Assembly: GCA_016873615.1 (NCBI GenBank)
Contig: VGWX01000004.1
Location: 1-59,441, forward strand
Direction: 5' to 3'
Source of the DNA: Nitrospira sp.
GTDB lineage: Bacteria > Nitrospirota > Thermodesulfovibrionia > Thermodesulfovibrionales > SM23-35
Length of the DNA stretch: 59,441 bases
Shown here: one piece after another, positions 42,862-46,526 of the stretch
Position numbering within the stretch: the first letter of the stretch is position 1
Layout of the letters: every line of letters starts with the position of its first letter
The notes under the pieces: generated by a model
What the model was told of the DNA's origin: nothing
What the model saw: only the letters and a program-made list of their open reading frames with translations
Databases searched by the model: none
Program-made: the position numbers and the translations under genes

Positions 42862-43938
42862 ATGGAATTCACTCCGAAATGGATAGCATGGGAGATAACA
42901 AGGAGATGCAATCTGCGGTGCGTTCACTGCCGTTCTTCCTCTGAGCTTGAAGCAAAGGCTCACCCTGATTTTCCTGCTGAAGAAGCTTTCAGAATATTAG
43001 ATGACATCAGCGGTTACGCAAAACCTGTTATCGTCCTCTCAGGAGGCGAACCTCTGCTGAGAAAAGATGTTTTTGAAATTGCTCAATACGGCACAGACAA
43101 AGGCTTAAGGATGTGTCTTGCAACAAACGGAACTCTCGTAACTGAAGAAATATGCGAAAAGATCAAGGATTCCGGAATCAGGATTGTCTCTCTCAGCCTC
43201 GATGGTTCTGAAGAAGCCGTACACGATAACTTCAGGAGTCAGAAAGGCGCATTTGCCGGAACGATTCATGCTGCAAATCTTTTTAAGCAATACGGCATCG
43301 AGTTTATCATCAATTCATCCTTTACAAAAAGGAACCAGGAAGAAATTCCAGGGGTATATAACCTTGCCAGAGAACTCGGAGCGACCGCCTGGTATTTGTT
43401 CATGATAGTTCCTACAGGCAGGGGTGAAGAGATCATGAATGAACTTATTTCAAAAGAGGATTATGAAAAAATCCTTGAGTGGCATTATCAGATGGAAAAA
43501 GATGAAAAAGATCTGCTTGTGAGACCGACCTGTGCGCCGCATTACTACAGGATTGTACTGCAAAAATCAAAAGAGGAAGGTTCAGGGTTTGAGAGAAGGA
43601 CGCTTAAGTTTTCCACAGGCGGTTCAAAAGGATGTATTGCAGGTCAACTTATAGCGCTGATTGACGTCGACGGAAATGTGTTGCCCTGCAGTTACTTTCC
43701 AAAGCCTGCCGGCAATATCAGGAAACAATCATTTCAGGATATATGGGAAAAATCAGAACTTTTCAGGGAACTCCGCGATTTCAGAAAATATAAGGGGAAA
43801 TGCGGTTCGTGCGAATACATACATGTCTGTGGAGGATGCCGCGCAAGGGCATATGCCATCCATGGCGATTATCTCGCTGAAGAGCCGTTTTGCGGATATA
43901 AACCACACAGATTATCACTGAAAGAAAAACACAGATAA
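42862..43938 (+). CDS. ahbD: Radical SAM/SPASM heme synthase (AhbD/NirJ-like)
   Basis: [28 protein letters not shown] cysteines ([17 protein letters not shown]); heme operon context. Confidence 0.8.
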
Positions 43939-43947
43939 TCACTGATA
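43901..43947 (+). repeat. Left arm of repeats flanking the GxxExxY gene
   Basis: acacagattatcactga and acacagataatcactga direct repeats. Confidence 0.8.
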
Positions 43948-43955
43948 AAAACAAG

Positions 43956-44363
43956 ATGACCAAAGAAAAAGATATAGATTATATTTATAAAGATCTTACT
44001 TACAAAATCATAGGAGCTATTTATGATGTCCATAAAGAATTAGGGAGTGTGCATAAAGAGATTATTTATCATAAAGCTATTTCTATAGAATTATCTAATA
44101 GAGGAATACCATTTATGGAAGAAAAACCTATTGATGTTAAATATAAAGGGAAGAAGATAGGGACATATAAGCCGGATTTTATTATTGATGATAAAGTTAT
44201 TTTAGAAGTTAAAGTAGCACCTGTTATTACTAAAGCTATGACTGATCAGGTTTTCTATTATGTTAAAGGCACGAAATATAAACTTGTATTACTGGCTAAC
44301 TTTGGAACAAGTAAGGTTGGGATAAAAAGACTTATATACACAGATACCGCGGATGAACACTGA
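43956..44363 (+). CDS. GxxExxY protein (PD-(D/E)xK nuclease fold)
   Basis: LTYKIIGA..DVHKELG...EIIY, KPDFIIDDKVILEVK, LANFG; conspicuously AT-rich. Confidence 0.9.
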   Translation: MTKEKDIDYIYKDLTYKIIGAIYDVHKELGSVHKEIIYHKAISIELSNRGIPFMEEKPIDVKYKGKKIGTYKPDFIIDDKVILEVKVAPVITKAMTDQVFYYVKGTKYKLVLLANFGTSKVGIKRLIYTDTADEH

Positions 44364-44426
44364 TTAGACATGGATCTCTACAGATATCTGTGATCATCTG
44401 AATATACATCTGTGATCTTCTGCGGT
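44338..44426. repeat. Right arm of repeats flanking the GxxExxY gene
   Basis: acacagataccgcggatgaacactgat...atctgtgatcatctg...atctgtgatcttctgcggt. Confidence 0.8.
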
Positions 44427-44439
44427 AAAGGAGGGGTTT

Positions 44440-45471
44440 ATGAATGATACTTTTTTGAGAGCATGCCGTGGTGAAGAAGTGGAATATACTCCAGTATGGC
44501 TTATGCGACAGGCAGGGAGATACCTACCTGAATATCAGGCTGTGCGGTCTAATGTTGATTTCCTGACTCTTTGTAAAAACCCGAAGCTTGCTGCAGACGT
44601 TACGCTTCAGCCTGTTGATATTCTCGGGGTTGATGCTGCCATCCTCTTTTCAGATATCCTCATCCCTGTTGAAGCAATGGGCATGCGCCTTGAATTTTCC
44701 GAGAAAGAGGGGCCGGTCCTCAGTGAGCCGGTAAGAAGCAAATCCGCTGTTGAAAAGTTGACCATTCCGGATGTTGAAGAAGATATGCCTTTTGTCTTTG
44801 ATACGATAAGAATCTTGATAAAAGAGCTCGAAAATAAAGTGCCTTTAATAGGGTTTGCCGGAGCTCCTTTTACATTAGCTACGTATATGATCGAGGGAGG
44901 AACATCAAAGAATTTTTTACATACAAAAAAGTTGATGTTCCAGTATAACCAGGTATTCCATTATCTTATGGAAAAGCTGACTGACTCTGTAATTTCATAT
45001 CTTTCCGCCCAGATAAAGGCAGGCGCCCAGGCAATACAGATATTTGATACCTGGGCCGGCATCCTTGCTCCTTTAGACTATAAGAAGTTTGCATTCCCTT
45101 ATGTCAGGAAGGCAATTTCCGAGCTGAAAAAAGAAGGCGTGCCGATAATCTATTTTGCAAATAATTGTGCGGGGATTCTCGGTGAACTAAAAAAAGTAGG
45201 GGATGATGTTTTGGGGATCGACTGGAGGATCGACATTTCTGATGCAATCAAAAAACTCGGCAAAAAAATTGTTGTACAGGGCAATCTGGATCCCTGTGCG
45301 CTCTTCCTTCCAAAGGAAAAACTTGAAGAAAGGGTAAAAGAGATACTATGGAAAGGAGAGGCTGCAAAGGGGCATATCTTTAATTTGGGCCACGGCATCC
45401 TGCCCCAGACGCCTCCGGAAAATGTTGCAGCTATGGTCGAAGCTGTCCACACCTATGGAAGAAAAAAGTAA
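44440..45471 (+). CDS. hemE: Uroporphyrinogen decarboxylase
   Basis: PVWLMRQAGRYLPEY, AAILFSDIL, FNLGHG. Confidence 0.97.
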   Translation: MNDTFLRACRGEEVEYTPVWLMRQAGRYLPEYQAVRSNVDFLTLCKNPKLAADVTLQPVDILGVDAAILFSDILIPVEAMGMRLEFSEKEGPVLSEPVRSKSAVEKLTIPDVEEDMPFVFDTIRILIKELENKVPLIGFAGAPFTLATYMIEGGTSKNFLHTKKLMFQYNQVFHYLMEKLTDSVISYLSAQIKAGAQAIQIFDTWAGILAPLDYKKFAFPYVRKAISELKKEGVPIIYFANNCAGILGELKKVGDDVLGIDWRIDISDAIKKLGKKIVVQGNLDPCALFLPKEKLEERVKEILWKGEAAKGHIFNLGHGILPQTPPENVAAMVEAVHTYGRKK

Positions 45472-45482
45472 GATTTCCTGAT

Positions 45483-46526
45483 ATGACATTAGGCATTATA
45501 CTTCTCAATCTCGGCGGCCCGGATTCGCTGCAGGCAGTGAGACCATTCCTGTATAACCTTTTCTCGGACAGACAGATTATCCGTCTTGGCCCTTCGTTTA
45601 TGCAGAAACCGCTGGCATGGCTCATTTCAACAATACGTTCAAAAAAGACAGAACAATACTATAAACTCATCGGCGGGAAATCACCGATCCTCGATATAAC
45701 AAAAACTCAGGCAAAAGCGCTCGAAGAAGCGCTAAATGAGAATTTCCCCCCACCCTCCCCTCCCCCTCAAGGGGGGAGGGTTAGGGAGGGGGTGGCAGAA
45801 ATCAATTTTAAGGTCTTTATAGGCATGCGTTACTGGAGTCCCTTCATAGAGGATATTATTCCTGAGATATACGGCAAGGGGATAAGGAAAGTTATAGCCC
45901 TGAGTCTTTATCCGCAATACTCTGTTGCAACATCAGGCTCATCAATCTCAAAACTGAAAGAAGTTCTATCCGATTATCAAATGGAAACTGTTTATATATC
46001 ATCATGGCATGCTCATCCATTGTATATAGAAGCGCTTGTGGATGTGATCAAAAAAGGGATTGAATCCTTTGCTGTAAACGCAGAACGCAGAACAGAGAAC
46101 GCAGAACCTGAAGTTCATGTCCTCTTCAGCGCCCATAGTCTGCCGCAGAAAATAATAGATGAAGGTGATCCATACGCAGACCAGACCATAGAAACGATTG
46201 AAGAGATCACGAAAAGAATTCCCCTGAAATGGCATTTAAGTTATCAGTCCAAAAGTGGTCCGGTTCAATGGCTTGAACCATCTACAGAAGATAAAATTAA
46301 AGAACTCGCAGGTGAAGGCGTTAAAAATCTTCTCGTTGTCCCGATAAGCTTTATCTCAGACCATATCGAAACCCTGTACGAAATAGATATTCTCTATAAG
46401 AAGTTGGCTGAAAGCCTTGGTATAAATCTTAAAAGGGCAGATTCTTTGAATACTCACCCCACATTTATAAAAGCATTAAAAGAGATCGTGATAAGTGAAT
46501 TAAAAAAAACGGGCAGCAAATCTTGA
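45483..46526 (+). CDS. hemH: Ferrochelatase (probably coproporphyrin type)
   Basis: LLNLGGP, MRYW.P, LYPQYS, FSAHSLP, DHIETLYEID. Confidence 0.95.
   Translation: MTLGIILLNLGGPDSLQAVRPFLYNLFSDRQIIRLGPSFMQKPLAWLISTIRSKKTEQYYKLIGGKSPILDITKTQAKALEEALNENFPPPSPPPQGGRVREGVAEINFKVFIGMRYWSPFIEDIIPEIYGKGIRKVIALSLYPQYSVATSGSSISKLKEVLSDYQMETVYISSWHAHPLYIEALVDVIKKGIESFAVNAERRTENAEPEVHVLFSAHSLPQKIIDEGDPYADQTIETIEEITKRIPLKWHLSYQSKSGPVQWLEPSTEDKIKELAGEGVKNLLVVPISFISDHIETLYEIDILYKKLAESLGINLKRADSLNTHPTFIKALKEIVISELKKTGSKS

Follow-up and report, generated by a model that had tools for sequence, protein, structure and literature searches.

Why does a small, AT-rich gene, flanked by complementary repeat arrays, lie between ahbD and hemE? 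The question arises in contig VGWX01000004.1 of Nitrospira sp. (GenBank assembly GCA_016873615.1); the window is the whole stretch of this contig that was analysed, 59,441 nucleotides (nt) in length. From the list of open reading frames (ORFs) and profile matches, three co-directional genes were assigned there: a radical-SAM/SPASM gene (42862–43938), an ORF of 135 amino acids (aa) (43956–44363) and hemE (44440–45471), followed by hemH (45483–46526). An earlier sequence-only reading had proposed that the middle ORF encodes a GxxExxY nuclease and, with its repeats, forms a mobile cassette. The answer favoured here, on balance, is that positions 43901–44427 are a foreign, promoter-less nuclease-gene cassette of a large cross-phylum family, whose nuclease putatively acts on its own arrays. 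That insertable cassettes of this kind form a family is considered probable. Below, G000 denotes the genome of the window, other G labels denote relatives, and L labels denote individual loci.

The insertion unit (43901–44427, plus strand, 527 bp) consists of left arm, gene, inner sense units and right arm, all described on the plus strand. The left arm (43903–43952) contains four sense units (CACAGAT or CACTGA) with starts at 43906, 43916, 43930 and 43940. The right arm (44384–44427) contains antisense units (ATCTGTG, ATCTGAA or TTCTGCG) with starts at 44386, 44396, 44408 and 44418, and has a palindrome centre at 44385/44386. The left-arm unit can be written as CACAGATnAT, and unit spacing is 10 nt in both arms; the complementary arrays of the sequence-only reading are therefore present, and its period of 9 nt has to be corrected. 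The two upstream direct repeats that it had listed were recovered as 23-nt copies at 43905–43927 and 43929–43951 (87% alike), and the downstream units complementary to them were located at 44386 and 44408. The GxxExxY-family PD-(D/E)xK nuclease gene (43956–44363, 135 aa) has a guanine-plus-cytosine (GC) fraction of 0.28, compared with 0.44 in the flanking genes and 0.425 in the genome. Its last codons and stop are the inner sense units (ACACAGAT ... GAACACTGA; 44338–44364), which repeat the left arm in direct orientation and could pair with the right arm in its place; the cassette copies of G003 and G125 have the same layout. Upstream of the nuclease ORF, a Shine-Dalgarno-like motif was not visible.

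For the pairing of the arms, duplex energies were compared with those of shuffled sequences. The duplex of left and right arm reached -27.9 kcal/mol (-10.9 ± 3.0 in shuffles) and that of inner sense units and right arm -23.4 kcal/mol; in both cases none of 300 shuffles was as low. The local 3' hairpin formed by inner units and right arm is the one used by the minimum free energy (MFE) structure of the 551-nt RNA, from which the long-range left–right stem is absent. The earlier placement of the gene in the loop of a long stem thus holds for the pairing capacity of the arms and does not hold for the MFE fold, while the alternative local hairpin that it had drawn at the 3' end of the gene was borne out.

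The edges of the unit were located by comparison with two close relatives. In a DNA contig of a near-identical strain (run X7), position 43900 is joined to 44428 with 150 other letters between them. In the same-genus genome G001, a 125-nt gene-less hairpin of unrelated units lies at the identical two edges, and ahbD and hemE are 95–100% identical to those of G000 right up to the edges of the element. In both relatives, what lies between these edges is a gene-less element different from the cassette. Because the X7 contig and G001 diverge at the same edges, 43901–44427 is treated as one replaceable block; the coordinates read from the sequence alone (43901–44426) were nearly exact.

For a view beyond this junction, a metagenome scan was performed with the window protein and yielded 76 loci. 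Among these, 37 had 66–87% identity, 8 at an ahbD-hemE junction and 29 elsewhere, and translated flank similarity divided the 37 into 22 flank-context groups. Arms of the type CACAGATGAT / ATCTGTGATCATCTGTG were present in 35 of the 35 loci (of the 37) with flanks inspected, and at two loci of 59% identity both arms had switched together to CACGGATTAG / ATCCGTGCTAAT. Close relatives with the same arms in 22 contexts support a self-contained insertable element made of gene plus arms, and likewise the earlier proposal of a minimal element without a transposase gene.

In addition, 99 GxxExxY loci were surveyed, 19 from the order of the window and 80 from genome contigs. By record titles, the contig loci belong to Acidobacteriota, Planctomycetota, Proteobacteria, Bacteroidota, Chloroflexota, Cyanobacteria, Verrucomicrobiota, a Methanothrix and others (more than 10 phyla); they were found with a 7-sequence alignment of one subfamily and are biased towards the LGPGLLES subfamily. 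Cultivable carriers, such as Rhodopila globiformis and Stieleria tagensis, are among them. The match between the upstream flank and the reverse complement of the downstream flank beat all 30 shuffles at 78 of the 99 loci, and an inverted-flank score of at least 30 was reached at 65/99, compared with 23/99 in a direct-orientation control. The motif CRCRRAK, which was picked after data inspection, occurred at 13.4 per kb upstream (sense) and 14.5 per kb downstream (antisense), against a background of 1.1–1.4 per kb in distant flanks and 0.7–1.1 per kb inside genes. Enrichment of the repeats around GxxExxY homologues, on which the sequence-only reading had been staked beforehand, was accordingly found (78/99 loci; 13–14 versus 1.1–1.4 units per kb). 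Typical arms start a few bases past the stop codon of the preceding gene and reach almost to the ribosome-binding site of the next; the ATG of the cassette gene often lies within the last left unit and its stop often within the first right unit. By a crude ORF-based call (135 cassettes, 99 with both neighbours), both neighbours were on the cassette strand in 56/99 and both opposite in 7/99. Taken together, these comparisons show gene and arms travelling as one unit, which as judged from its flanks occupies short intergenic spacers, mostly co-oriented with the neighbouring genes.

The protein was assigned from strong matches to PF13366 (PDDEXK_3; E 7.2e-33, 113.9 bits, cut-off 22) and TIGR04256 (E 1e-32, 112.7 bits, cut-off 35), so that the earlier call of an AT-rich GxxExxY ORF between ahbD and hemE was upheld. 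The literal G-x-x-E-x-x-Y motif is absent from the window protein and its subfamily, which read V-H-K-E-I-I-Y (E and Y kept, G replaced); the family name is retained because both profile matches are strong. The PD-(D/E)xK catalytic residues E35, D74, E84 and K86, of which those in the PD...EVK pattern had previously been read as intact, are intact and invariant in 64 homologous sequences, and Q98 and Y102 are conserved in at least 90% of them. A confident AlphaFold model was obtained, with a predicted local distance difference test (pLDDT) score of 88.6 and a predicted template modelling (pTM) score of 0.83. When the model was compared with the PDB using Foldseek, the top match was the Cas4-family protein ACE1 (9iac, E 4.7e-4), and the next ranks were held by an uncharacterised protein of restriction-endonuclease-like fold (3ijm), alkaline exonuclease, RecE, Cas4 SSO0001 and lambda exonuclease; the template modelling (TM) scores of these matches were modest (0.34–0.52). 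PADLOC returned weak Cas4 matches only, a PDB sequence search with the window protein gave no match at E ≤ 1, and homodimer prediction for it scored 0.00. The conserved E, D, ExK and QxxxY residues fit DNA nucleases of the Cas4/lambda-exonuclease clade. The ratio of nonsynonymous to synonymous divergence (dN/dS) of the gene, estimated against the G003 and G125 copies, was 0.07–0.17, which shows purifying selection on the cassette protein at the level of codon comparisons.

For the history of the site, ahbD was found in 41 of 41 genomes searched (G000 included), and the slot, defined as the stretch from the conserved FCGY motif of ahbD to the start of hemE, was read in 29 relatives. Plain spacers of 13–81 nt with little structure were present in 17 of the 29, which are the empty sites that the sequence-only reading had called for; these relatives carry a different ahbD tail, of the MPVKLKK type. 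The same cassette was found in one (G003, 85% protein identity), gene-less hairpins of the same CACAGAT/CGCAGAT units in three (G022, G010, G013), other structured inserts in five (those of G001, G019 and G002 visibly homologous to one another), and an ambiguous slot in two. In the remaining relative (G015), the slot holds a gene for a PF05635 '23S rRNA intervening sequence protein' (116 aa, E 3e-35), which is enclosed by inverted arms of AGTAGTT-type 7-nt units (L028, 2553–2999). A further copy of the cassette was found at the ahbD-hemE junction of G125, from another family of the order. Direct repeats (left arm and inner sense units) bracket the gene in G000, G003 and G125, and in G022 and G010 the solo hairpins correspond collinearly to a left arm followed by a right arm. 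The junction hairpins of G001, G019 and G002 contain AGTAG/AGCAG units similar to the arms in G015; from this visual impression they may be relics of a G015-like PF05635 cassette. In the junction cassette of L139 the right arm (about 536–700) is expanded, with some five tandem copies of the unit pair ATATCTGTGATCATCTGTGAT. The slot is a compact natural experiment, being plain, hairpin only, or filled with a nuclease cassette or a four-helix-bundle cassette, with differences between close strains; because its alleles vary in this way, gain, loss and replacement can be tested at a single place.

A DNA tree of 38 cassette genes placed the 10 junction copies in one starred clade (99/100), and because they form one clade, the gene tree points to a single origin at the ahbD-hemE site. 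Mapped onto a tree of hemE from 20 hosts, the presence of the cassette requires 5 changes, and the nearest relatives of G000 are all without the cassette. Between G003 and G125, cassette DNA is 85–90% identical and the flanks 60–78%. Synonymous divergence (dS) of the cassette was 0.56–1.1, compared with 1.5–2.0 for host genes (G000–G003) or values too saturated to compute, although the extreme AT bias of the cassette may partly depress its dS. Cassette GC is 0.28–0.32 against 0.40–0.51 in host genes, and the G125 cassette (0.30) lies in a region of 0.50. The lower divergence of the cassettes favours later spread between lineages. As read from the aligned slots, the site is shown to have since been emptied, swapped between strains or refilled by other hairpin elements.

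Besides the possible effect of AT bias on dS, several results weigh against the favoured reading. The X7 contig is a mosaic: on the ahbD side it has 20 differences from G000, 14 of them common to G001, and over 473 nt on the hemE side it matches G000 at every position, compared with 12 differences in G001. The two alleles are thus shuffled by ordinary homologous recombination between strains, and clean edges alone are no evidence of site-specific insertion. Conflict between cassette tree and host tree was not established (approximately unbiased (AU) test, p 0.112), so that with one junction clade a long vertical descent with losses is compatible with the trees; since the strain differences are explicable by homologous recombination, the junction gives no sign of recent transposition. 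A target-site duplication was not found, and the edges lie in an A-rich tract before the ribosome-binding site, which masks the call either way. Copy numbers are low: G000 has 2 GxxExxY genes, 15 of 121 genomes in the order sample have 1–3 PF13366 matches each, and the double-unit motif occurs once in G000 and 5–9 times in four relatives. RNA folding of the whole region did not exceed that of shuffled sequences (z -0.34; opposite strand -0.69), and the arms of L139 are lopsided, with about 8 right units and 2–3 left units. Finally, an unrelated four-helix-bundle gene (PF05635) is enclosed by the same kind of arms, and the nuclease is therefore not the sole possible occupant.

The relation between arms and cargo was examined by unit period. 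In 71 GxxExxY arms the period was 8 in 29, 9 in 25, 10 in 8 and 11 in 7; within the subfamily of the window protein it was 10 in 23 of 24 arms. The second PF13366 gene of G000 lies between inverted units of the CCACAGAGA type. In the order, PF05635 genes are far more frequent than PF13366 genes (74/121 genomes); significant inverted arms were found at 28 of 30 PF05635 loci, with period 7 in 23 of the 28 and a unit vocabulary quite different from that of GxxExxY. G000 has three PF05635 genes, C198:1481-1795 and C92:1055-1372 (L213, L214) and C5:50754-51053 (L215). Inverted arms of 7-nt units (GGTGAAA/AAGTTAA and ATAGCTC types) enclose two of them, and the third is without arms; the unit types of these arms recur as gene-less hairpins elsewhere in the genome. 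Inverted unit arrays with a cargo-tied period suggest protein-binding arrays at DNA ends more than a purely RNA-level stem.

Gene-less hairpins with arms of 7–9-nt unit arrays were observed by the dozen in G000 (76 scan rows, many overlapping). Their unit types are AAGTTAA, GGGTTCAA, AGAGCAT, ATAGCTC, AGTAGAC and CCACAGAGAA; the GGGTTCAA-type hairpin occurs at 7 places and has no gene-bearing copy in the genome. Examples are located at C1:83019, C1:87396, C3:63449-63726, C5:15534 and C11:37831, and further ones at C23:10450, C26:22126, C47:12493, C80:3680 and C94:4107. The 23S rRNA match of G000 (C29:9472-12620, L250) extends over 3149 nt against a model of 2925 positions, so that this gene may contain about 220 nt of extra sequence, and an ATAGCTC-type hairpin lies near it (C29:14130-14242).

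For the mechanism, the following course is proposed. The cassette would be read through from the promoter of the host operon. Its arms would fold the insert aside in the transcript, as in ORF-bearing 23S rRNA intervening sequences (IVS), which would make insertion between co-transcribed genes tolerable. On DNA, the nuclease would recognise its own unit arrays and thereby help the cassette to spread or persist; it might, for instance, cut at the hairpin arms or beside them, with a filled copy then serving as the repair template. Solo hairpins such as those of G022, G010 and G013 could be what is left when the gene is deleted between its direct repeats (left arm and inner sense units). Nuclease action on the repeats is suggested by the dependence of arm period on cargo (8–10 versus 7 nt) together with the Cas4/lambda-exonuclease-like fold; we hold it tentatively, as a step that has less than an even chance of being correct. 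A contribution of RNA-level stem processing may be entertained somewhat more readily, at a little under even, and IVS-type processing, by analogy, is a possible reason why the insert is tolerated. Apart from the period, the structural part of the sequence-only reading was right; the action of the nuclease on the repeats, which it had also proposed, is hypothetical.

Several other explanations were weighed against the same data. The element might act mainly at the RNA level, as an intervening sequence in which RNase III cuts the arm stem, frees the ORF loop and separates the message of ahbD from that of hemE. The arms would then stay complementary for the sake of this cut, and the protein would be incidental or translated only after processing. 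Its architecture is that of the Coxiella IVS, as far as the part of the description consulted goes (PMC4990558), and the excess of cassettes co-oriented with both neighbours (56/99, against 7/99 opposed to both), the start codons in last left units and stops in first right units, and the PF05635 gene at the same junction in G015 all suit it, as does the regulatory content of the insert, in which 0 terminator-like sites and no clear excess of promoter-like sites (8 versus 4.5 ± 2.1) were counted. Selection on stems at the RNA level was, however, expected to leave more G.U-type than A.C-type mismatches on the sense strand. Over all surveyed loci the counts were 104 and 99, and within significant arms on the sense strand 125 and 107, beside 210 mismatches of transversion type, so that a G.U bias as a sign of RNA-level selection was rejected; the counts suit palindromy of the DNA more than of the RNA. 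The long-range stem missing from the MFE structure, the very unequal arm lengths that can occur, and the result that none of 249 other loci, including all GxxExxY and PF05635 cassette loci, matches the 23S rRNA region of G000 also speak against a purely RNA-level element, which moreover leaves the arrival of DNA at new sites unexplained; we regard it as unlikely. An old, domesticated gene with a regulatory intercistronic hairpin, inserted once in the ancestor of the order, vertically inherited, retained where useful and otherwise lost, and immobile now, would account for the single starred clade of junction cassettes, the AU test that does not reject their grouping (p 0.112), the low dN/dS (0.07–0.17), the similar identities between G000 and G003 (cassette 85%, flanks 86% and 83%) and, by homologous recombination, the swaps between strains. 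It is nevertheless improbable in view of relatives at 66–87% identity that keep the same arms in 21 further flank contexts, of the G125 cassette with GC 0.30 in a host region of 0.50, and of G003 and G125 cassettes that are far closer than their flanks. Moreover, G001, G019 and G002, the nearest relatives of G000, have a tail and hairpin of another kind that are homologous among themselves, and the G000 cassette therefore looks like a gain within the clade.

Hairpin arrays could also be non-autonomous repeats moved in trans, for instance by a RAYT-like Y1 transposase, with the genes as passive cargo or lodgers. Six PF01797 matches in G000, the dozens of gene-less periodic-unit hairpins of several unit types in the same genome, and the two unrelated gene families in the same kind of arms would agree with such repeats; 5 of the 15 GxxExxY-bearing genomes of the order sample are without a PF01797 match, and G099 has 8 PF05635 matches and no PF01797 match. 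Since, in addition, unit period and vocabulary differ by cargo (8–11 versus 7 nt), arms co-vary with protein subfamily, and the arms themselves contribute start and stop codons, movement in trans is judged quite improbable. That there is no element at all, and that slippage-prone simple-sequence arrays flank a small gene by chance, has hardly any likelihood left: unit arrays do expand and contract, as in the roughly fivefold right-arm pair of L139, but the arrays have a systematic polarity (sense upstream, antisense downstream, 10x background), beat all shuffles at 78/99 loci, accompany the same protein subfamily with the same arms in 22 contexts and are polymorphic between strains with exact edges. 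The shuffle test, the unit polarity and the 22 contexts already contradict it. The foreign nuclease-gene cassette is therefore retained as the favoured reading of 43901–44427, with the reservations given above.

Sources and vehicles of the cassette were searched for in further collections. A phylum-wide search with the window protein (E ≤ 1e-25) matched 3 of 401 genomes, G000 among them. The phage collection gave 2 records of one haloarchaeal virus (36% identity) and the plasmid collection 7 records (27–38% identity); by these similarity searches, no obvious vehicle emerged among phages and plasmids. Metatranscriptome runs X19 and X20 contained contigs of relatives that are 90–95% alike over ahbD and hemE, none of them reaching the cassette. 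An Rfam scan of 43700–44600 at E ≤ 1 returned two snoRNA chance matches only, and column-wise alignment of the right-hand hairpin was prevented by unit numbers that vary too much between copies. At one fatty-acid-synthesis-like (fab) gene junction, two loci of one genus (L048, G076:C46; L053, G096:C37) carry different GxxExxY genes; their arms are different but related, and the aligned sequences are, by eye, clearly different.

Both neighbours of the cassette were assigned by profile. The upstream host gene (42862–43938, +), of the AhbD/NirJ-type radical SAM/SPASM class, has heme b synthase TIGR04545 as its best match (438.8 bits, below the model cut-off of 500). Its C-terminal tail comes from the left arm, which encodes the final 12 codons and the TAA stop (43936–43938), as the sequence-only reading had recognised. 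Directly 3' of the right arm, hemE with its ribosome-binding site occupies 44428–45471 (+), with AAGGAGGGG at 44428–44436 and the ATG at 44440 (453 bits, cut-off 303). Inside hemH, a palindrome of G/C tracts (C-runs, then G-runs) lies in frame at 45744–45800 and reads PPPSPPPQGGRVREG; similar AATCCCCCCTTnCCCCCCTTT palindromes were seen in G000 at C7:32465, C9:17854, C10:42953, C38:19363, C49:7454 and C124:486.

GxxExxY (PF13366) and the '23S rRNA IVS protein' (PF05635) each form a large family of small proteins to which no function has been assigned. If the cassettes are autonomous by means of a 125–135-aa nuclease, few self-contained mobile genes known would be smaller; thousands of 'hypothetical' genes would then be given a function, and a common class of intergenic hairpins an explanation. 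A wider generalisation is offered as speculation and is rather unlikely to hold in full: GxxExxY proteins would be mobility enzymes of minimal DNA elements that end in inverted arrays of 8–10-nt binding units, settle in short spacers between cistrons and leave hairpins without a gene; four-helix-bundle (S23p/Avd-like) cassettes with 7-nt units would be a parallel class, and both together the source of ORF-bearing 23S IVS and of many bacterial and archaeal 'word-array' hairpins.

In the full-text literature, supplementary files aside, no description of hairpin-armed GxxExxY cassettes was found, and the widespread family of insertable cassettes is apparently undescribed in print. In the parts consulted, a 2012 survey of PD-(D/E)xK proteins lists PF13366 as 'function unknown', and a paper on reverse transcriptase (RT) classification has GxxExxY only as a stray domain label.

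The closest published architecture, within the portions of the literature consulted, is that of ORF-bearing 23S rRNA IVS of Coxiella burnetii and Leptospira, with an S23p / PF05635 ORF. In the section of the Coxiella description used here, terminal inverted repeats form a stem, an ORF of low GC lies in the loop, RNase III cuts in the stem, and the origin and mobility of the IVS remain unclear (PMC4990558). By analogy, the element of the window is built like such an ORF-bearing rRNA intervening sequence: both are about 0.4–0.5 kb long, with terminal inverted repeats around one small ORF, a GC below that of the host and a patchy distribution (according to the same part of PMC4990558). Moreover, PF05635 genes in inverted arms are found both at the ahbD-hemE junction of G015 and at two sites elsewhere in G000. 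Unlike the 23S IVS, the cassette resides in a spacer between protein-coding genes and not in an rRNA helix, its ORF encodes a PF13366 PD-(D/E)xK nuclease and not S23p / PF05635, and its arms are short-unit arrays with a mismatch spectrum that lacks an RNA-type wobble bias.

Three other systems share some of these features. REP sequences and REPINs are short hairpin-forming repeats between operon genes, and the gene of the RAYT (Y1 HUH) transposase is flanked by inverted copies of them. A dedicated small enzyme gene between inverted repeat copies and many gene-less copies are thus common to both systems. The cassette differs by an enzyme of PD-(D/E)xK and not Y1 HUH fold, by low copy numbers, by arms that are multi-unit arrays differing in sequence between subfamilies, and by its occurrence in 5 of 15 carrier genomes without a PF01797 match; the PF01797 genes of G000 lie elsewhere. 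Homing endonuclease genes, which include PD-(D/E)xK types, resemble the cassette as selfish nuclease genes at one conserved site, patchy in distribution and less diverged than their flanks. Unlike them, the cassette has close relatives in at least 22 unrelated contexts, which speaks against a single homing site, and it has its own inverted arms and no intron or intein. Finally, nuclease domains of the Cas4, RecB and lambda-exonuclease kind include the best structural matches of the cassette protein, with the E..D..ExK..QxxxY residues conserved; unlike Cas4 / RecB domains, it has 135 residues only, with no cysteine cluster seen in its sequence and no CRISPR context.

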